64,000 nucleotides of DNA from Bacteroidota bacterium (lineage in GTDB: Bacteria; Bacteroidota; Bacteroidia; Flavobacteriales_F; PHOS-HE28). The translations under genes and the position numbers were made by a program. The notes beneath the pieces were generated by a model, which saw only the letters and a program-made list of their open reading frames with translations, ran no database searches and was not told the DNA's origin. Positions 8,815 through 44,914 of the stretch are shown here, one piece after another (the first letter of the stretch is position 1; each line of letters begins with the position of its first letter). The DNA is taken from contig CAUJED010000023.1 in the NCBI GenBank assembly GCA_963169535.1, forward strand, positions 8,030-72,029, written 5' to 3'.

Positions 8815-8930
8815 CCACAGGGCCCTTTGCGCACATCCGGCCTGTTCGAGGGGACGGCTTCCACGCGAGCCATTTCCACCCGACGAACCAGGACCCGAAT
8901 GCTTCGTTCCGACCCTTGTACACGTACCAT

Positions 8931-9088
8931 TTCATAGGTAGGTGATAGCCAGAGATACGCCGGGTGGTTGCAATGCCGAAAGCGTAGAGCACAGCTTCCT
9001 GGAGGCGGTGCTACGGAACGATCCAGACGGAGAAGCCACGCGGAAAAGGACCGAGTGGATCAGCCTGCTCCTTCATGCGAATGGGTAT
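8931..9088 (-). repeat. intergenic repeat family, copy A
   Basis: The 82-nt core at 9007-9088 (GGTGCTACGGAACGATC...CCTTCATGCGAATGGGTAT) is about 85-90% identical by hand alignment to copy B. It lies about 50 nt 3' of the stop of the minus-strand DUF1501 gene. Confidence 0.75.
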
Positions 9089-9138: not shown

Positions 9139-10719
9139 TCACCGCATCTTGATCAGCGCCTTCACCTGCTGCTGCATGCCGTACTGCACACGGCAATAGT
9201 ACGCGCCTGGTGCAAGGTCGGTGAGGTTGGCCTGCATACGGTGCTCGCCGGGTGCCAGCGGGCCGTTGTGCAGGGTGCGTATCACCTGGCCATTCTCGCT
9301 AAAGATCTGGATCAGGGTGCGATCACCGTTGGTGTTGAAGCGTATGGTCACCAGGTCGGTGAAGGGGCTGGGATATACCTCGAGCAAGGAGGTGCCCGCT
9401 CGGTTGTTGGCCTCATGGATGCTGGTCCCCATGCAACCTTGTGGATCCACGAGCGCGAGGGGTTGATAGGTGTCCAGGAGCACCTGGTCCACATCGGCGG
9501 GATCCAGACAGAACCAATCCTTCAGCACGCTGGCGTACACGCTGCGGAAATCGTACTGCATGGGAAGGTTGGTGTCGTACGTGGTGTTGGCGGGGATCAC
9601 GGGGTTGGTGCCCAGCATGCCGGGCAGCACGTGGGTGCCGAAAAGGAACAGGGGAGCGGCGGTGCCATGGTCGGTGCCGATGGAGGCGTTGCTCTTGATC
9701 CGCCGACCGAACTCGGAGAAGGTCATGCCGATCACGCGGTCATCGAGGCCCAGGAGTTCCAGGTCGTTCTGGAAGGCCCGAATGGAGTTGCCGACACCTT
9801 GCAGCAGTTCGGCATGCTTTCCGGTGGTGGGGTTGCCGGCCACCACTTGCTGGGCGTGGGTGTCGAACCCATCGATCCCCACCCAGTAGATGCGGGTCTT
9901 GAGGCCGCCGCAGATCAATTGCGCCACGATCTTCAACGCGTTGGCGAGTTGTGCGCCGGGTTGGGTGCCTGTGGGGTAGAGGGTACTGAGGTTGCAACCA
10001 GGCAGCGCGGCCGCTTGGATCACATCACCATAGAGGTCGGCCTGGCGTTGAACGGTGCGTACGAAGTCGAGCTTCGCTCCCATGCAGTCCGGTGTGGTGG
10101 GATCGGTGAACAGGTTGCCGGTGAGGTTGAGCGGGTCGTCCGTATTGTAGATGGATGCGCCCATGGCCACCCCTTGGTGCTGCAGGCCGATGCTGATGGG
10201 GGCGCCGATACGGATCGCGAGAGGGTCGGGCATGGTGGCATTGGGGAACCCATTGGGGTAGTTCGGGTACTCGAAATGGAGGTATCGCCCGGTCCAGCCA
10301 CTGGCCAGGAGTTGGTCGCTATTGGCACCGGTCTCCCAGATGTCGGTGCTGCGGAAATGGGAGAAGTCGGGGTTGGGGTAGCCCACACCCTGCACGATGT
10401 TCAGTTTGCCATTTTGCCACAGCTCGCGGAGGCCAGCCAAGGCGGGATGCAGGCCAGTGCCGCTGATCCCGGGAAGGTCGAGCACCGCGTTCTCCGGGAT
10501 CAGAACATTGGCGCGCACGTTGGAGAGCGTGCTGTACTGATCCAACGGGATCACCGTGTTCAGGCCATCGTTGCCGCCATAGAGCTGCACGATCACCAGC
10601 ACACGATCCTCGCCGGAGCGATCGAAGAGGGGCCCCAGCAGGGGATCGCCGAAGCCACGGACGGCGAAGCCACCAAGTGTTGCAGCGGAGGTGGTGCGGA
10701 GGAATGAACGTCGGCGCAT
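9139..10719 (-). CDS. DUF1501 (sulfatase/phosphatase-like) protein with a Tat-type signal and a T9SS C-terminal sorting domain
   Basis: MRRRSFLRTTSAATLGG twin-arginine motif. DUF1501-type core (LYGGNDGLNTVIP, GFDTHA, FSEFGRR, GTDHG). C-terminal ~80 aa is VYPSPFTD...YYCRVQYG...ALIKMR, typical of a T9SS CTD. Confidence 0.85.
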   Translation of the reverse strand: MRRRSFLRTTSAATLGGFAVRGFGDPLLGPLFDRSGEDRVLVIVQLYGGNDGLNTVIPLDQYSTLSNVRANVLIPENAVLDLPGISGTGLHPALAGLRELWQNGKLNIVQGVGYPNPDFSHFRSTDIWETGANSDQLLASGWTGRYLHFEYPNYPNGFPNATMPDPLAIRIGAPISIGLQHQGVAMGASIYNTDDPLNLTGNLFTDPTTPDCMGAKLDFVRTVQRQADLYGDVIQAAALPGCNLSTLYPTGTQPGAQLANALKIVAQLICGGLKTRIYWVGIDGFDTHAQQVVAGNPTTGKHAELLQGVGNSIRAFQNDLELLGLDDRVIGMTFSEFGRRIKSNASIGTDHGTAAPLFLFGTHVLPGMLGTNPVIPANTTYDTNLPMQYDFRSVYASVLKDWFCLDPADVDQVLLDTYQPLALVDPQGCMGTSIHEANNRAGTSLLEVYPSPFTDLVTIRFNTNGDRTLIQIFSENGQVIRTLHNGPLAPGEHRMQANLTDLAPGAYYCRVQYGMQQQVKALIKMR

Positions 10720-10722
10720 GGT

Positions 10723-12372
10723 TCAATGGATGTGGCGTTCCGCGGCTTTCTGCATGTCTCCGATCAGCCATCGAAGGATCACGGGCACCAGTTGCGCGGT
10801 CATATTGGTGGTGTTCGGGTCGGCGATGTAGGTCTCGTAGGCTTCCGTCCAGTATACATCGCTCACCTGTCCGAAGAGCAGGTACTGCTGTTTCAGTTGC
10901 TGTTGCACCGAAGCGGAGATCGGGTTCACATACAACAACTGCACCAGGTCCTGGATCAGGGTGTTGGGGTCGGCGGGGTCGCTCAGTTGCTGGACGAAGG
11001 CGACCTGGTCGGTGGTGAAGGTGAGGTTGGCGCTGGCTGGATCCACGGTGTCGGCGGGTGTCTCCACTTCGGCATACACCACGGCCAACAGGGAGTTGTT
11101 GCGCTCGGGGAAGGAGGCGGTGTCCATCCACAGTTCATCATAGCTCGGGTAGAGGTAGTACGCGGGCCAACCCGCCACGTTGGGCGGTTCCAATAGGTTC
11201 ATGCCTGCATAGGCCACCAGCCAGTAATGCTCTTCGTTCACCATCTGCCGCGCTTCCACCAGTTCGGCATCGGGGTGTGGGAACTGGAAAAGACGCAGAT
11301 CCCCCACCACCAGGTCCACGGGGCTCTTGATCATGCAACCGCGAATGGTGTTGGAGAAGAAGTGATCGCTGGTGAGCAAGGCACGCAACACGATGGCGAT
11401 CTGGTCCGGCGCTTCCAGGTTGTCCAGGAAGAGTTGCGCCAGTGGTGTGATCACCTCGGCTTCGGCTTGTTCGCTGATCTCTCCATGAACGAAGAAGCGG
11501 TACAGTTCGCGACAGATGAAGCGAGGACATTCGGGGTTGGCGAGGATCATGTCGAGCAGGGCGTTGAGCTCTGTCTCTCCGGCGTTGATACCGGTCTGGC
11601 CTTGGATCACGGTGTTCCCGAAGAATGCGGAGAACTGCTTGTCGGTGGTGGTATGGTTGGGCGGGAAGAAGATGCGCTGGGGGAGGATCGGGATGCCATT
11701 GGCCTCGACCTGAAGGGTCCATCCGGTGAGGACCCGTGCCGCGGCCTGCACATCGGCCTCGGTGTAACCGCTGCCCTGCCCCAGTGTGAAAAGCTCCATC
11801 AGTTCGCGTGCGTAGTTCTCGTCCGGAGCCGAGGCCACGTTCAGGAAGCCGTTGAGGTAGTACAGCATCGCGGGCTCAATGGTCACGTCGTGTATCAACT
11901 GCTTGAAATTGCCTTTGCACCGCGTTCGCAGCAGTTGATTCATGCTGTACTGCATCTCCGACTGGTACACGATGGAGGTCTGCGTGGGCATGTGGTTGTG
12001 CCAGAACAGCACGAGCTTTTCCCGCAGGTTGCGCTGCTGGTTCGTCATCAATTCCATCCACCATGCGCCGAAACTGCGCAGTCGAACTTCGATCACATCG
12101 GTGTCGTTCAGCGGGGTGATCGGTGTGTTCACCCAGGTGGTTCCGAAGGGTACGGCGGCATCGATGCCATTGGGGTTCCCGCTGGCGTCGGTGTACGCCT
12201 TCACCGGCGGTGTGGTATCGTTGGTGAAGTCGAGCAGCTCGTCCACCACGTCGTTCAGGCTCATGCCTTCGAAGTGGGCACGGTCTGCCACGGTGCAGCC
12301 GAAGAGCGATCGCCGTAAGAGGTGCTGGAGTTCGGTGGTGCCGAAGGGGCCGGTGTAGGGGGTGATGGGCAT
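10723..12372 (-). CDS. DUF1800 family protein
   Basis: N-terminus ...ELQHLLRRSLFG, then FWHNHMPT and NVAGWPAY, characteristic of DUF1800. Sits immediately upstream of its DUF1501 partner (3-nt gap). Confidence 0.8.
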   Translation of the reverse strand: MPITPYTGPFGTTELQHLLRRSLFGCTVADRAHFEGMSLNDVVDELLDFTNDTTPPVKAYTDASGNPNGIDAAVPFGTTWVNTPITPLNDTDVIEVRLRSFGAWWMELMTNQQRNLREKLVLFWHNHMPTQTSIVYQSEMQYSMNQLLRTRCKGNFKQLIHDVTIEPAMLYYLNGFLNVASAPDENYARELMELFTLGQGSGYTEADVQAAARVLTGWTLQVEANGIPILPQRIFFPPNHTTTDKQFSAFFGNTVIQGQTGINAGETELNALLDMILANPECPRFICRELYRFFVHGEISEQAEAEVITPLAQLFLDNLEAPDQIAIVLRALLTSDHFFSNTIRGCMIKSPVDLVVGDLRLFQFPHPDAELVEARQMVNEEHYWLVAYAGMNLLEPPNVAGWPAYYLYPSYDELWMDTASFPERNNSLLAVVYAEVETPADTVDPASANLTFTTDQVAFVQQLSDPADPNTLIQDLVQLLYVNPISASVQQQLKQQYLLFGQVSDVYWTEAYETYIADPNTTNMTAQLVPVILRWLIGDMQKAAERHIH

Positions 12373-12677
12373 GGCGGGTCGATCCGGACAAGAAAGCTAC
12401 TACAATGTGGAAGGGGGAACGCACGCCACGCGGAAAAGTGTCAACAAGTCGACGGTCGGGGATCCCGGCCAGGCCGAAGCACGGTGCTACGCCGATGAGC
12501 CGAGATCGCCCTGGTGGGGCATTGGGCAGGTGCGTAGGTCCCCGATACCCCAGCCCGACGTGGACAATGGTGCAAGGGGTATGGTCCTCAGGTCAGGGCA
12601 CGACCAGGTCCATGCCAATGATGTACGGGGAGGCGGTGCGCCCCGAGGTGAAGCGTGCTCAGGAAGCGTGGTCCGGA

Positions 12678-14261
12678 TCAGCCGCGAACCTTCAGCAGGT
12701 TGCGCACTTGTTGGTCGGTGCCGTTCTGCAGTCGGGCATAATACACGCCGGTGGGCAGGTCGCCCAGGTCCACGTCCACTTTGTACGTTCCCGGGGCGAT
12801 GACCTTGTTGAACACGGTCTGTATCAGCTGTCCTTGTTCATTGAACACCTGGAGCATGGTGGGGCCACCGAGGGAGGTGTACTCCAGGGTGGTGCGTTCC
12901 ACGAACGGATTGGGGTAGGCGTGCAGCAGCTCCACCCCCGCGTGCTGGTTAGCCTCGCGGATGTCGGTGCTGAGGCATCCGGCGCTGCTGATCACATTGA
13001 GCGGTTGGTAGGTCTGCAGCAACACGGAGTCGATGTCCTGTTGCTCGAGGCAGAACCAATCGCGCAAGACGCTGGCGTACACGCTGCGGAAGTCATACTG
13101 CATGGCCAGGTTGGTGGCCGAAGTGGTATTGGAGGGGATCACCGGGTTGTTGCCGAGCATGCCGGGAAGCACCTGGGTGCCGAACAGGAACATGGGCTGT
13201 GCGCTGCCGTGGTCGGTGCCGTAGGAGGCGTTGCTGGTGATGCGTCGTCCGAATTCGCTGAAGGTCATGCCCAACACACGATCTTGGAGGCCCATGAGCT
13301 GGAGGTCGTGTTGGAACGCGCGGATGTTGTCGCTCAAGGCGCGCAGCAGGTTGGCATGGGTTCCGATGGTGTGGTCGCCGGGGTTCACCTGGGAGGCGTG
13401 GGTGTCGAAGCCGCTCATGCTCACCCAGTAGATCTTGGTCTTCAGTCCGCCACAGATCAGTTGCGAAACGATCTTGAGGGCCTGTGCCAGGCGGTTGGCC
13501 TCGGTGCTATACGTGGGGTATAGGCTGCTGTGCTGGCAGTTGGCGCTGGCTGCTGCTTCGATCACGTTGCCATACTGGTCGGTCTGGCGTTGGATGGTGC
13601 GGATGGCGAGGAGCTTGTCGCCACTGCAACTGGCCGAGGCGGGGTCGTTGTAGATATTCCCGGTGAGGTTGAGCGGGTCGTTGGTGTTATGGATGCTCAC
13701 CCCCATGTTCACCCCCATGTTCTGCAGGCCCGCGCCGATACCGCCGCTCACCCGGATGGCCAAGGGGTGGGGCATGTCCGGGTTCGGATAGCCCACGGGA
13801 TAGTTCGGGTACTCGAAGTTCAGGTAGCGCCCCAACCACCCCGATTGGAGGATCTGGTCGCTGTTGGCGCCGGTCTCGTAGATGTCCTGTGCGCGGAAGT
13901 GGCTGAAGTTGGGTTCCGGGTAGCTCACCCCTTGCACGATGGCGAGCTTGCCTTCGTTCCACAAGGTCTGCATGCCGGTCATGGCGGGGTGCAGGCCGGT
14001 GCCGGTGAGCCCGGAGAGTGAAAGCACCTGGTTCTGCGGGATCAGTACATGGGACCGGAGCGAGCTCAACTGGCTGTACGCACTGGTGGGGATCACGGTG
14101 TTCAAACCATCGTTCCCTCCGAAGAGCTGGATGATCACCAGTACGCGGTCCTCGGCCACGGACCGGCCCAGGGCGCCAAGGAGCGGACTGCTCAGTCCAC
14201 GTACGGCCATACCACCGATGGTCACCGCACCAGCCGAGCGAAGGAAGTGTCTTCTGTTCAT
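12678..14261 (-). CDS. DUF1501 protein, paralogue 2, with a Tat-type signal and a T9SS C-terminal sorting domain
   Basis: MNRRHFLRSAGAVTIGG. Same core motifs as 9139..10719 (roughly 60% identity by eye). CTD is AYPNPFVE...YYARLQNG...NLLKVRG. Confidence 0.85.
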   Translation of the reverse strand: MNRRHFLRSAGAVTIGGMAVRGLSSPLLGALGRSVAEDRVLVIIQLFGGNDGLNTVIPTSAYSQLSSLRSHVLIPQNQVLSLSGLTGTGLHPAMTGMQTLWNEGKLAIVQGVSYPEPNFSHFRAQDIYETGANSDQILQSGWLGRYLNFEYPNYPVGYPNPDMPHPLAIRVSGGIGAGLQNMGVNMGVSIHNTNDPLNLTGNIYNDPASASCSGDKLLAIRTIQRQTDQYGNVIEAAASANCQHSSLYPTYSTEANRLAQALKIVSQLICGGLKTKIYWVSMSGFDTHASQVNPGDHTIGTHANLLRALSDNIRAFQHDLQLMGLQDRVLGMTFSEFGRRITSNASYGTDHGSAQPMFLFGTQVLPGMLGNNPVIPSNTTSATNLAMQYDFRSVYASVLRDWFCLEQQDIDSVLLQTYQPLNVISSAGCLSTDIREANQHAGVELLHAYPNPFVERTTLEYTSLGGPTMLQVFNEQGQLIQTVFNKVIAPGTYKVDVDLGDLPTGVYYARLQNGTDQQVRNLLKVRG

Positions 14262-14272
14262 GGTACTTCGGT

Positions 14273-15928
14273 TCAGAACATCTGGGTTTCGGCGGCCTTC
14301 GCCATATCGAGGAGCAGGAAGTTGATCAGGTTGGGCACCATTTGCGCGGTCTGGTCGGTGGTGTTCGGGTTGGCCACGTACAGTTCGTAGGGCTCGGTCC
14401 AGTACACATCACTTTGCTGGCCCAGGAGCAGGCGCTGGGTCTTCAGCGTGTCCTTGATGCCTTGTGAAATGGGGATCGCATAGAGCAGGTCGGCACAGCC
14501 GTCAACCACATTGGCCGGTAGGCTGGGGTTGTTGAATTCGCCCACGATGCCCACGTAGTTCGGTTTGATGGAGACCTGCCGACTGGCGGCCTGGTAGAAG
14601 TCGGTGCCGGTATTGAAGCCCTGGCCGATCAGGCCCTGCACGGCGAAGTTGCGTGCGGCGTAGGAGGCGCTGTCCACCCAGATCTCATCAAAGAGCGGGC
14701 TTTGGTGGTAGGCGGGCCAACCGGCCACGTTGGGTGGGTCGAAGAGGTTCTGGTCGCAGTTCACGCAGATGTAGTAGATGTCCAGGAACATCCGGTAGCG
14801 TGCTTCGAGCTGGGTGCTTTCACTGGGGAAGGTGAACTTGAGTTTCCGCACCATGCCGATGATGAGGTCGGCCGGGCTCATCATCATGCAAGCCCGGTTG
14901 TCGGCGTTGAAGAAATGTGCGCTGGTGAGCAGGGCGTGCATCACCGTGCGCATCTGGTCCGGGGCACCGGCGTTGGCGCGGAACACCTCGGCCAGCGGCA
15001 CGATCAGTTCAGCCTCGGCGGTAGCGCTGATCTGGCCATGCACGAAGAACCGGTAGAGCTGCCTGCAGACGAAGAGGGAGCATTCCTGCTTGGCGGTGAT
15101 CATGTCCAGCAAGGCGTTCAGCTCGGTTTGCCCCGCGTTGGCCCCGGTCTGCCCGGTGATCACCGTGTTGTTGAAGAAGGCGCTGAATTGCTTGTTGGTG
15201 GTGGTGTGGTTGGCTGCGGTGAACACCGTTTCGGGCAGGATCGGCGCACCGTTCGATTCGCGGAAGGACCAACCGGTCAGCACCCGTGCGGCGGCTTGGA
15301 CGTCTTGCTCGGTATAGCCGCTGCCTTCGCCCAAGGTGTAGAGCTCCATCAACTCCCGGGCATAGTTCTCGTCCGGCGCCGAAGCCACGTTCTGGTCACC
15401 GTTGAGGTACTCGAGCATGCACGGGTCCACGGTGATGCCGTACATCAATTGCCGGAAGTTCCCCAGGCTTTGGGTGCGGAGGAGCTGGTCGTAGTTCCAC
15501 CATAGCAGGCCGTTGAACACTTCCTGCACCTGGATGGCGAGGTGATTGTACCAGAATAGGCGCATCTTCTCGTGGATGGTCCGCTCCTGGTGGATCATCT
15601 GGCCCACGGTCCACGAGATGTAGCTGTACATGCGGCCCACATTGGCGTCCACCGCGGCCACCACATTGGGCGTGTTCACCCACGTCTGTCCGAAGGTCAC
15701 CGCCGGGTCCATGGCGTTGGGGTCGCGCACACCGCCGTTCAGGGCCCAGTAGTTCTTCAGGGGCACCGAGGTGGGAAGGCTCGTGGCCAGCAGCGCGTCC
15801 ACCACTTGGGTCAACGTTTGTCCGCTGAATTGGGCGAGGTCCGCGTTGGTGGCGCCGAACAAGGTGCGGCGCAGGAGGTGTTTCAATTCCTCACGGCCGA
15901 AGGTGCCGCTGTAGGGAGTTACAGGCAT
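14273..15928 (-). CDS. DUF1800 family protein, paralogue 2
   Basis: ELKHLLRRTLFG, FWYNHLAIQ, NVAGWPAYHQ. Collinear with 10723..12372. Confidence 0.8.
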   Translation of the reverse strand: MPVTPYSGTFGREELKHLLRRTLFGATNADLAQFSGQTLTQVVDALLATSLPTSVPLKNYWALNGGVRDPNAMDPAVTFGQTWVNTPNVVAAVDANVGRMYSYISWTVGQMIHQERTIHEKMRLFWYNHLAIQVQEVFNGLLWWNYDQLLRTQSLGNFRQLMYGITVDPCMLEYLNGDQNVASAPDENYARELMELYTLGEGSGYTEQDVQAAARVLTGWSFRESNGAPILPETVFTAANHTTTNKQFSAFFNNTVITGQTGANAGQTELNALLDMITAKQECSLFVCRQLYRFFVHGQISATAEAELIVPLAEVFRANAGAPDQMRTVMHALLTSAHFFNADNRACMMMSPADLIIGMVRKLKFTFPSESTQLEARYRMFLDIYYICVNCDQNLFDPPNVAGWPAYHQSPLFDEIWVDSASYAARNFAVQGLIGQGFNTGTDFYQAASRQVSIKPNYVGIVGEFNNPSLPANVVDGCADLLYAIPISQGIKDTLKTQRLLLGQQSDVYWTEPYELYVANPNTTDQTAQMVPNLINFLLLDMAKAAETQMF

Positions 15929-27218: not shown

Positions 27219-27665
27219 GGGCTTGGGGGAGATTGGGGACGTGTTGGGGTTTCGTGGAACGATGCACCTCGTTGTGAGCAGAGGTCATCACAGCGTACGG
27301 TTCTTCAGTTTCACATCATGGTGGAACAGGGGGCGAATGGGGCGTAGGATGGAGGCCGAACTGGATCCAATATAGTGATCCGGGGCGAGCAAAGCCTGAT
27401 GTGCTGCCGGGGGCCGGGTCTCGATCCCGCGTCCAAAGGGGGAGGTGTCAAGGGCCGCAAGCTTGGCGGGCATCGATCCATTGCCCCCGCTGCCACATGA
27501 GCGGCTCAGGCCGTGGCGCGGAGGACCGGGGAGAAGATGAATACTCGCCCAGGCTGCTGTTCCGGCCTATGCAGTGGAAGGCATGATGCCGATCGGACAT
27601 TCAATGGCGGCCTTTGATGCGCGCCTGTTTTTTCATGGGCCGGAACGAGGGGCCTGTTATTTCAT

Positions 27666-27820
27666 TTCGCATGAAGGCGTAGGCCAGAGATGCGGAGGGA
27701 TCGTTCCGCATGACGATACGGCGGGGTCGCCGCATAGCCGGTGCTACGGAACGATCACGACGGAGAAGTCGTGCGAAAAAGACCGAGTGGATCGGCCTAC
27801 TCCTTCGTGCGAATGGGTAT
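27666..27820 (-). repeat. intergenic repeat family, copy B (best preserved)
   Basis: Arms TTCGCATGAAGGCGTAGGCC (27666-27685) and GGCCTACTCCTTCGTGCGAA (27794-27813) are complementary at 18 of 20 positions. An internal 10-bp stem pairs GATCGTTCCG (27699-27708) with CGGAACGATC (27747-27756). The ...GAATGGGTAT end abuts the TGA of the LytTR gene. Confidence 0.8.
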
Positions 27821-28548
27821 CATAGGCTCAGCAGGTCCTTGAACCGTGCGGCCTGTCGGCGGGAGACCTCGATGGCTTCCGGCTCGCCATTGCGGTCGAG
27901 GCTCTTGAGCTTCACCATGAGACCACCATTGAACCAAGGCTCGATCTTGTCCACCCAACGCAGGTTGATGATGTGCTTGCGGCTGGCACGGAAGTAGACG
28001 AGTGGATCCAACTTCTCCTCCAGCTTGTTGAGTGAACGCAGAACAAGCGGCTTCTGATCGTCGAACCGCACCCGCACATAGTTCCCTTCGCTCTCGAAAT
28101 AGCGGACATCCTTCAAGGTCACGAACCAGCACTTCTCCCCATCGCGCAGGAAGATCTGGTCACCCTCGCGTAACACTTCGCGTTGTGGTGCATCCTGTTC
28201 GTGCTGCGCATGCAGTTTGCCCAACGCCGCAGCCAGTCGATCCGGGTCGATCGGCTTCACCACGTAGTCCAGCGCGTTCACCTGAAAGGCGCGCAGGGCA
28301 TGTTCGTCGTAAGCGGTCACGAAGATCACCTGGGGTGCGGGGTCCAGTGCTGCGAGCAACTCGAATCCATCGCGTCCCGGCATGTTGATGTCCAGAAAGA
28401 TCAGGTCCGGGCGTTTCTCGGCCACCATGGCCTCGGCTTCGTCCGCGTTCGCGGCTTCGCCAACGACCTCGATGTGATCATGCCGCTCCAACAGGCTGGC
28501 GAGTTCTTTCCGGGCGAGCCGTTCGTCATCGATGATCAGTGCTTTCAT
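27820..28548 (-). CDS. LytR/AlgR family response regulator (REC + LytTR DNA-binding domain)
   Basis: MKALIIDDERLARKEL..., DLIFLDINMPGRDGFEL, and a C-terminal LytTR-type domain (...IRYFESEGNYVRV...). Confidence 0.9.
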   Translation of the reverse strand: MKALIIDDERLARKELASLLERHDHIEVVGEAANADEAEAMVAEKRPDLIFLDINMPGRDGFELLAALDPAPQVIFVTAYDEHALRAFQVNALDYVVKPIDPDRLAAALGKLHAQHEQDAPQREVLREGDQIFLRDGEKCWFVTLKDVRYFESEGNYVRVRFDDQKPLVLRSLNKLEEKLDPLVYFRASRKHIINLRWVDKIEPWFNGGLMVKLKSLDRNGEPEAIEVSRRQAARFKDLLSL

Positions 28549-40610: not shown

Positions 40611-41411
40611 ATGGCCATGCGAACCATCCTCGTTCCATACGATTTCTCCGATTGTGCTACCGACGCCCTCCGGGTGGCAGCGAAGCTGGCGCGCCTCACC
40701 GGTGCCGCCGTCCACGTGGTGCATCTCTACGAGCAGATGACTGATTTCCATACGGAGAACCAGCGCATACGCGAAGACATCGAGGCGAAGCTGGAGCAGG
40801 TGCCCACCTTGCCTTTCCTCAAGGGCATCGAGCTGAAGAAGTTCATGCTTCGACAGCTTTCGCTCACCGAGATGTTCAAGAACGAAAGGCTGTTGGATGC
40901 CGACCTCATCGTCATGGGATCGCATGGCGCCACCGGCCTGCGCGGCATTGTGGGCTCCAATACCCAACGGATCGTGAGGCAAGCTCCCATGCCCGTACTG
41001 GTGGTCAAGCATCGCATCGAGGATTTCGATGTGAAGGACATGGTCTATGCGTCCAACTTCACGGATCAGGACGTGGAGAAGTTCGATGCCTTCCTACCGA
41101 TCATCACCCTCTTCGACCCCCGGATCCATCTGTTGAAGGTGAACACACCGCGCAGCTTCGAACGCACCGACGACAGCAACCGTGCCATCGACCGATTCCT
41201 GCAGCGGTACGGCCTTAAGAAATACACGGCCAGCATCTACAACGACCTCAGTATCGAAGAGGGCATCCTCAACTTCACCAAGGGCATCGATGCGGACCTC
41301 ATCGCCATGGCCACCCATGGCCGAACCGGTTTCTTCCATGTGGTGAATGGCAGCCTTACCGAGGATATCGTGAACCATACCCACTTCCCCGTGCTGAGTG
41401 TGAAACTCTAA
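40611..41411 (+). CDS. universal stress protein (tandem UspA domains)
   Basis: Two Usp units: ILVPYDFSDCATDAL...LIVMGSHGATGL...GSNTQRIVRQAPMPVLVVK and ...LIAMATHGRTGF...GSLTEDIVNHTHFPVLSVK. Confidence 0.88.
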   Translation: MAMRTILVPYDFSDCATDALRVAAKLARLTGAAVHVVHLYEQMTDFHTENQRIREDIEAKLEQVPTLPFLKGIELKKFMLRQLSLTEMFKNERLLDADLIVMGSHGATGLRGIVGSNTQRIVRQAPMPVLVVKHRIEDFDVKDMVYASNFTDQDVEKFDAFLPIITLFDPRIHLLKVNTPRSFERTDDSNRAIDRFLQRYGLKKYTASIYNDLSIEEGILNFTKGIDADLIAMATHGRTGFFHVVNGSLTEDIVNHTHFPVLSVKL

Positions 41412-41573
41412 GAGCCTGTTTAGGATCTCTTGAGCGATGGACTTCGAAGCTATTTTTCGACCAGACGCAGCCTGAAAATGTTGGCGTAGCGGTGACTACG
41501 GGAACATTTTCGGGCGAAGTATGGGCGGAAAAGAGACCGAAGGACGAGTTTGAAGAGATCCTAAACAGGCTCT
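41411..41573 (+). repeat. 163-nt imperfect inverted repeat (MITE-like element or rod-shaped ncRNA candidate)
   Basis: Perfect 21-nt arms AGAGCCTGTTTAGGATCTCTT (41411-41431) and AAGAGATCCTAAACAGGCTCT (41553-41573). Inner 12-bp stem 41471-41482/41503-41514 with one G.U on the plus strand. Apical CGTAG-CGGTGA-CTACG. About 50% GC by hand count. Confidence 0.7.
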
Positions 41574-41899
41574 AAGAGCCCGAACTGGCGCCAAGGGATC
41601 GGGATCCAGGAACGGGCGTGGGGGTGAAGGCCAGGGCAATCGCTCTCTCCCTACCGCCAGTACAGAGGATGTGCCGGAACAGCAGGCCCAGCGTGCGGCG
41701 ATCCTGTGCCCCTCGTGCCCGCCGAAGGCGGGTTCGAAGCGAGGGGCGATCCAGCGCGGACCAGCGATCCAAGGAGCAAGGAACGCACACTGGGCCTGCT
41801 GCTCCTACCCCGTTGCCGAAGGCTTGGCCCTTGTCGAATGAGGACGTGAGGGGCCGGAGGGCCGATCGCCGATCGTGGCGCCATGGATGCCTCTTCATG

Positions 41900-41907
41900 T
41901 ATATTTA
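41900..41907 (+). promoter_or_regulatory. candidate Bacteroidota -7 promoter element (TATATTTA, 7/8 to TAnnTTTG)
   Basis: Located 21 nt upstream of the ATG at 41928. Confidence 0.3.
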
Positions 41908-41927
41908 CGCCAAACGAGCATGCATCC

Positions 41928-44667: not shown

Positions 44668-44721
44668 GGCCTTGCGGTCAAGTGGTTGAGGCGGCGCGGA
44701 AGTGGTTCATGGGTGATGCCA

Positions 44722-44914
44722 GTTCGCATGAAGGCGTAGGCTGGAGATGCGAAGGGGTTTTCCGAAGGACGATCTGGCGAAGTCGGTACAACGTCGAAGG
44801 CTTGGACCGCAGGGAGCGAAGCTACCGAGGGCCGGTGGTACGGAACGATCACAGCGGAGATGTCATGCGGAAATGGACCGCGTGTATCGGCCAACTCCTT
44901 AGGGCGAATCGGTA
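44722..44914 (-). repeat. intergenic repeat family, copy C (overlaps the 3' end of the rsmF-like gene)
   Basis: The 5' block TTCGCATGAAGGCGTAGGCTGGAGATGCG and the 3' core GGTGGTACGGAACGATCACAGCGGAGATGTCATGCGGAAATGGACCG...CCTTAGGGCGAATCGGTAT align with copies A and B. The variable middle is longer. Coordinates are +/-1 nt. Confidence 0.75.

Follow-up and report, generated by a model that had tools for sequence, protein, structure and literature searches.

The intergenic repeats in this DNA very probably represent a family of non-coding MITEs, hairpins of 160-202 nt that insert at T-N-A triplets and rely for their movement on a DDE transposase of the IS5 / PIF-Harbinger type acting in trans. 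The nature of the family is settled by a pair of filled and empty alleles, which carries the signature of a MITE insertion with a T-N-A duplication. The copies are small (160-202 nt) and non-coding, end in terminal inverted repeats and are dispersed, with presence/absence polymorphism, and at least 22 distinct insertions were found overall, five of them in the window (the whole stretch of 64,000 nt that we analyzed). The window is an unremarkable piece of the chromosome of an uncultured Flavobacteriales species that is present in many public assemblies (e.g., GCA_008016945.1), and it carries, among others, genes for T9SS-tailed proteins along with feoB, purA, rsmF, relA/spoT and glyA. The sequence-only reading had offered two possibilities, a REP/MITE-like mobile repeat or a 3'-UTR structured RNA module. 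The first is upheld by the terminal inverted repeats, the 3-bp target duplication, the absence of copies at orthologous sites of sister species and the lack of an Rfam match.

All four copies in that reading were found again where it had placed them in the window, both by direct reading and by an unbiased repeat search. A degenerate pattern derived from shared core positions (TACGGAA-N-CNGAGANG-N-GNATC-N22-GGTAT) had its only window matches at these four sites, and 100 shuffles gave no match. A fifth copy (E, 41406-41578), overlooked before, was caught by a covariance model covering the 124-position core, and no more copies were detected in the window by covariance search with the filters off. 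The refined limits given here are those of the element proper, leaving out the flanking T-N-A. Copy B, the copy first reported, is a 160-nt short form on the + strand (27660-27819), flanked by TTA (27657-27659) and TCA (27820-27822), and its core (27679-27800) scores 92 bits with the covariance model (E = 9e-24). The two arms of its terminal stem, which is also its terminal inverted repeat, are TTCGCATGAAGGCGTAGGCC (27666-27685, +) and GGCCTACTCCTTCGTGCGAA (27794-27813, +). They match at 18 of 20 positions by Watson-Crick pairing, the number originally claimed, plus one G·U, with a duplex energy of -37 kcal/mol. The internal 10-bp stem reported for this copy (27699-27756, +) also is exact, with GATCGTTCCG (27699-27708) being the perfect complement of CGGAACGATC (27747-27756), and the conserved apical hairpin ATAGCCGGTGCTAC (27734-27747, +) lies inside it. 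The folding energy of copy B is -73.3 kcal/mol (z = -5.3 relative to shuffles), and the reverse strand folds about equally well.

The other window copies differ in form and state of preservation. Copy A (8925-9087, +) is a degenerate chimera in which the 5' arm comes from another subfamily, ~27 nt of the 5' core are gone and the 3' half matches the window type; with just 15-20 bits, the copy scores poorly against the family model. Its core blocks are 85-86% identical to those of copy B without gaps and are separated by a 1-nt indel, in line with the similarity and the indel already noted for this pair. Copies C (44717-44914, +; 63 bits) and D (1356-1555, - strand, thus in inverted orientation; 77 bits) are long forms, so called because of a 38-nt apical insertion also present in copy L003. 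Copy E (41412-41572, +) has a homologous core and different terminal inverted repeats (GAGCCTGTTTAGGATCTCTT...), and is flanked by TAA on either side (41409-41411 and 41573-41575). Its core (41429-41554) scores 41 bits (E = 7e-9, covariance model), and the copy folds as a rod hairpin of -94 kcal/mol (z = -12). We also noted that the inner part of copy E (41430-41552) has TGA on either side of it, inside a perfect outer palindrome of 25 bp. Conceivably this copy is nested, a core unit having inserted into a small palindrome, but the outer palindrome has no second copy in the sequences compared.

Beyond the window, the core-pattern scan retrieved 12 stretches from species-representative genomes and 14 from metagenomes, and the core model also picked up extra copies in the fetched loci. 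The additional copies that had been anticipated outside the window thus exist, with genuine pattern matches confined to a few Flavobacteriales/Bacteroidota assemblies, these being metagenome-assembled genomes. One metagenome locus (L013, Ga0075011_10006590:280-1010) was dropped, as its three matches to the pattern arose by chance in an unrelated tandem repeat; this array is rich in GGATACC/GGTATCC palindromes. The canonical element is 162 nt (TACC...GGTA), exemplified by L008:4050-4213 (164 nt as initially delimited), and copies range from 160 to 202 nt. A search of the whole window against Rfam 15 gave no match that reached a gathering threshold, in agreement with the earlier failure to recognize a named RNA family, and at E values up to 10 copy B and the canonical copy L008 returned only chance-level hits of the microRNA/snoRNA type. 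No matches were found in the phage, plasmid, IMG/VR or E. coli collections, the last of which was covered with a blastn search of copy B against 20,395 E. coli records (5,426 E. coli genomes). We found no account of such an element from Flavobacteriales in the literature searched.

Evidence for the mode of insertion came from the flanks. Among 20 independent insertions, T is found at position -2 in 18 and A at position +2 in 16, and the two middle bases agree in 11 and are complementary in none, which suggested a T-N-A direct repeat. We then compared alleles of the spacer between mnmG and an aldehyde dehydrogenase gene in four close relatives, taken from the 90% cluster of the MnmG protein encoded beside copy L001b. 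The spacer is filled in L001 and L057 and empty in L056 and L058. Empty alleles read ...CGTGTCG-TAA-AGACC..., and filled alleles ...CGTGCTG-TAG-TACCATTTACGC ... GTAGATGGCA-TAA-AGACC..., where the insert runs TACC...GGCA. The gap in the alignment is 165 nt, equal to the 162-nt element plus 3 nt, and therefore the element proper is TACC...GGTA, bounded by terminal inverted repeats and flanked by a 3-bp target duplication. Ends are conserved across copies (TACCATTT.../...AAATGGTA) and come in two kinds, TACCATTTACGC.../...GCGTAAATGGTA and GAGCCTGTTTAGG.../...CCTAAACAGGCTC. Copy E has the same anatomy with the second kind of ends, CTC-TAA-GAGCCTGTTTAGG...CCTAAACAGGCTC-TAA-GAG. Its site, CTC-TAA-GAG, resembles the palindromic target reported for maize PIF/mPIF; the motif string CTC-TAA-GAG was not found in the literature searched.

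The duplication is perfect in only about half of the copies and is missing even from some young ones, and therefore mutation after insertion or recombination between copies is needed. Recombination of this kind is known for IS elements (PMC11708052). In the present family, exchange between copies is supported by three chimeras, which were exposed by a matrix of arm pairing. The terminal arms co-vary: the two arms of one copy form a duplex of -32 to -46 kcal/mol and arms from different subfamilies one of about -6 to -29 kcal/mol, such that arms of 19-27 bp pair inside a copy and not between subfamilies. On this basis, L009 combines a 5' half of the L015c type with a 3' half of type 1; in L003, a 5' arm of the window type is joined to a 3' arm of the D/L023 type; and in copy A, a 5' arm resembling L015c precedes a 3' half of the window type. 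Separately, a 5'-truncated fragment of another subfamily (first ~55 nt; L001 ~170-330, -) lies directly beside the full copy found upstream of mnmG, so that the two stand in tandem.

Mobility also is apparent from the distribution of copies. Near-identical copies lie at unrelated loci of a single assembly (L002, L007, L008). For the window, we compared six sister-species loci, in which the Usp protein is 80-90% identical. Copies C and E are missing at the orthologous sites of all sister species examined and are fixed within the window species, and thus are lineage-specific insertions. The spacer between the Usp and DUF1883 genes is 47-81 nt in the sisters and about 470-520 nt in the window, the exceptions being L040 (~1.5 kb) and L042 (418 nt), both of which hold unrelated inserts; that between rsmF and the next gene is 0-42 nt in the sisters and 231 nt in the window. 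The spacers of the sister species (Usp 80-93% identical) are too diverged for the junctions at the empty sites of E and C to be placed to the base. With the family model, no copy was found in 123 kb of sister-species sequence, as against five in the 64-kb window. Some short-read contigs of the window species and its relatives break inside or beside copies.

The surroundings of copy E show further peculiarities. About 300 nt more of lineage-specific DNA lies directly 3' of the copy (41579-41880) and holds a second, unrelated hairpin with 22-nt arms (41676-41697 / 41784-41805) that are 91% complementary and separated by an 86-nt spacer. In the sister L042, the Usp-DUF1883 spacer carries a different insertion of ~370 nt (L042:930-1340) with two direct copies of a ~65-nt motif (GGCCAAAGG.CCGTT..ATACCAGCCG.C.C..AGGTGGC...) unrelated to the MITE family. 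This intergenic site seems to gather insertions. The motif GTATATTTACGCCAAAC (41905-41925), located ~20 nt upstream of the DUF1883 start and kept in L037, L038 and L044, may be a promoter or leader signal. A DUF6056 protein, tried as a synteny anchor, had no close homologues in our search.

We examined the fold of the family as a whole. The canonical copy forms one uninterrupted rod hairpin of about -97 kcal/mol. From the outside toward the apex, it comprises a 19-bp terminal helix, a 7-bp extension and a short helix, followed by a 10-bp helix (UUUUCGG/CCGGAAA) and an internal loop (AGGACGAUA/GAGAAGGCAU), and at the top a 13-bp helix and the apical CGUAG/CUACG hairpin. Either strand forms a long rod hairpin because the two halves of the element are complementary. 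The sequence-only reading had described the family by a closing stem and the internal 10-bp stem of copy B. The alignments replace this with the continuous rod: the 10-bp stem of copy B is absent from all other copies, in which those columns are paired differently, and what had been called a variable middle is really the 5' strand of the covarying helices plus the optional 38-nt apical insertion.

Covariation was assessed in an alignment of 19 distinct copies that was guided by, and thus fitted to, the model. In this alignment, 21 of the 45 core pairs show compensatory changes on both sides, and 86.9% of cells are paired, compared with 35-50% when the partners are slid by 1-3 columns; none of 500 shuffles reached any of the five pairing measures. 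RNAalifold independently gave the same helices, with compensatory changes in 21 of its 31 pairs. With the strand written as +, G·U outnumbers A·C in the helices (82 versus 26 cells, at 25 versus 17 distinct sites), and the consensus rod has G·U pairs and no A·C pairs. Conservation of the loops is not above that of the stems, and the 3' half is slightly better conserved than the 5' half. The core is common to copy E and the other subfamilies despite their unrelated terminal repeats.

Coding capacity was examined as well. No start codon or reading frame is conserved among the copies, and radical amino-acid changes fall exactly at covarying helix positions, as expected from the original view that the family is non-coding. 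A coding reading was considered, as 8 of 12 copies lack stop codons in one frame, and was rejected; this frame has no start codon, and its amino-acid conservation is no more than the nucleotides impose.

The copies are found 0-300 nt after a stop codon, in most cases in the spacer of two convergent genes, and occur in both orientations relative to the neighboring genes. Where only one gene is able to read into the element, copies B, C and L003 are antisense to it, and copies E, L005a and L011 are in the sense orientation. The copies do sit at gene 3' ends, as a 3'-UTR RNA module would, but with their mixed orientations such a role is no more than possible. Several copies contact the coding sequence itself. 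The TCA at the 3' flank of copy B is the TGA stop codon of a LytTR response-regulator gene on the - strand, copy E begins just after the TAA stop codon (41409-41411) of a tandem-Usp gene, and copy C supplies rsmF (- strand) with its last five codons and stop codon. Copy A lies between convergent genes for a PIF1-like helicase and a DUF1501/T9SS protein, and copy D between a gene for a 297-aa protein (+) and feoB (-). No terminator-like T-run was found alongside copy B. The folded strand is on the G-rich (leading) strand at 9 of 12 informative loci, a weak trend. As a side observation, the region following copy A (9139-15928) contains a tandem-duplicated gene pair encoding a DUF1501 protein with a T9SS sorting tail and a DUF1800 protein (9139-12372 and 12678-15928; 70-78% nucleotide identity).

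No transposase was detected in the window with Pfam or among the annotated genes of the fetched loci, and neither a full-length IS nor a cognate transposase sharing the ends was found in the window and fetched loci. We infer that a transposase encoded elsewhere in the genome cuts and pastes the element. Canonical Harbinger elements generate 3-bp duplications and are related to a prokaryotic family, IS5, to which IS1031 and ISL2 belong (PMC12730594). The combination of a 3-bp T-N-A (TWA) duplication, seen for copy E, across the 20 flanks and in the filled and empty alleles, with terminal inverted repeats suggests that this is a DDE enzyme belonging to the IS5 family / PIF-Harbinger type. Insertion takes place at a T-N-A triplet, which is duplicated. 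Insertions within genes would be lost, leaving survivors at or a few bases from gene 3' ends, a preference that follows from the target, as T-N-A includes TAA, TGA and their complements. With time, copies decay (A), acquire the apical insertion (C, D) or recombine into chimeras (A, L003, L009). If read through from a neighboring gene, a copy could place a hairpin at the mRNA 3' end and possibly affect termination, processing or stability.

Some features go beyond what a minimal MITE needs, namely the covariation along the full length of the hairpin, the G·U excess on one strand and the core shared by copy E and other subfamilies. Across subfamilies with wholly different terminal repeats, conservation inside the element equals that at its ends, which is unusual for MITEs and counts against the MITE reading, as does the excess of G·U over A·C, which is not predicted by a purely double-stranded DNA mechanism. 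One possible source of these features is that the fold takes part in transposition, for example by joining the ends or in a single-stranded state. They could also arise if the element is, or became, a functional structured RNA, either a cis module at mRNA 3' ends (a stabilizer, processing site or terminator) or a released small RNA, with selection on the RNA fold of the + strand maintaining the rod. This explanation, which is compatible with a MITE origin, draws on the compensatory changes (21/45 core pairs), the 86.9% of cells paired, unmatched in 500 shuffles, and the agreement of RNAalifold. It also draws on the preponderance of G·U (82 cells versus 26 for A·C), with G·U alone in the consensus rod, the retention of the core between copy E and subfamilies with unrelated terminal repeats, and the location of copies 0-300 nt past stop codons. 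Yet the copies are oriented both ways to the genes that read into them, copy B has no adjacent T-run of a terminator, and the flanks of the copies are unrelated, such that there is no shared promoter. In addition, the loops are no better conserved than the stems, the alignment was fitted to the model, and the sister species do well without copies. Covariation in a palindromic transposon also can arise without RNA: co-evolution of both ends with the transposase can mimic it, and template-switch correction inside quasi-palindromes can produce it. We therefore regard a functional RNA as unlikely, and give a similarly low weight to the narrower proposal that the ~120-nt core is an RNA or single-strand module carried by the element, which aids its own spread or is used by the host at mRNA 3' ends.

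Movement as single-stranded DNA offers another way to account for a long hairpin with strand asymmetry. The element would then resemble a REPIN mobilized by an HUH tyrosine transposase (RAYT/TnpA-REP), for example of the Bacteroidetes-specific subclass 2.6. Single-strand HUH transposition of the IS200/IS605/REP type makes no target duplication, and the 3-bp duplication in the filled/empty pair thus disfavors this mechanism, as does the absence of an ORF with an HUH-Y1 motif in the 390 kb scanned. The conserved apical GCGTAG...CTACGG hairpin would fit such a mechanism, but its GTAG is base-paired rather than an unpaired 5' tag and is not conserved in copy B, where the apex is ATAG. In its favor are the position of the folded strand on the leading strand at 9 of 12 loci, a weak trend, and the existence of a RAYT subclass peculiar to Bacteroidetes, whose members have "atypical secondary structures" on their flanks that recur elsewhere in the genome (PMC6006769). 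It was a serious candidate, but we find this account very improbable. The copies are still less likely to be relics of known IS ends or members of a known RNA family. The terminal inverted repeats are all that speaks for this origin, and the copies are discrete, complete 162-nt units with both ends present rather than one-sided remnants. Rfam 15 gave no match at threshold and only chance-level hits at E values up to 10, and blastn found nothing in the phage, plasmid and E. coli collections.

As MITEs, the family accounts for intergenic DNA peculiar to single lineages, for changes at gene ends and for breaks in short-read assemblies among its hosts, a widespread group of uncultured Flavobacteriales from wastewater and freshwater. 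At the level of single genes, rsmF has gained five element-encoded codons, and the stop codons of the Usp and LytTR genes lie in the duplicated triplet. The family provides a clear-cut case, in bacteria, of a Tourist-like T-N-A MITE whose whole body is a covarying hairpin and whose subfamilies recombine at the conserved apex. How 3' ends form is poorly understood in the phylum Bacteroidota, and should the hairpin function at the RNA level, it would offer a way to study 3'-end processing there. The family will be useful for annotating the host genomes and is neat for MITE biology, without being a surprise.

Comparison with known systems shows what is shared and what is particular here. ERIC/IRU elements of Enterobacteria and Yersinia and Correia/NEMIS elements of Neisseria are imperfect palindromes of 100-170 nt that are intergenic and close to gene ends, come in several sizes owing to insertions at fixed internal positions, and can form long RNA hairpins when co-transcribed. 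The present family shares with them the full-length palindrome at gene ends and the size variants, but has no sequence similarity and belongs to another phylum. Moreover, a TA duplication has been reported for the ERIC and Correia families, in contrast to the 3-bp T-N-A seen here, and copy B showed no similarity to ERIC or enterobacterial REP-BIME sequences among the 20,395 E. coli records. REPINs and BIMEs likewise are hairpin-forming doublets of high copy number, located between convergent genes and with ends able to supply stop codons (PMC3733652). As judged by the features that define the REPIN/RAYT families (PMC3733652; PMC6006769), namely the lack of a duplication, an unpaired GTAG/CGTC tag beside a short palindrome and a RAYT gene flanked by copies, the elements described here are different: they have a target duplication and no such tag, their arms are not themselves short palindromes, and no RAYT was found in the 390 kb scanned. 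The closest likeness is to the Tourist-like MITEs and their IS5-PIF-Harbinger parents (IS1031/ISL2 groups). In the present family, however, the whole element is a near-perfect palindrome rather than the ends alone, the ends (TACCATTTACGC... / GAGCCTGTTTAGG...) are not known to match any catalogued IS, and the parent transposase was not found in the window or the fetched loci. Common to both are the small size, the lack of coding capacity, the terminal inverted repeats and the 3-bp T-N-A target duplication. The family is new and hitherto undescribed, and the kind to which it belongs, the MITE as a selfish element, is well known.
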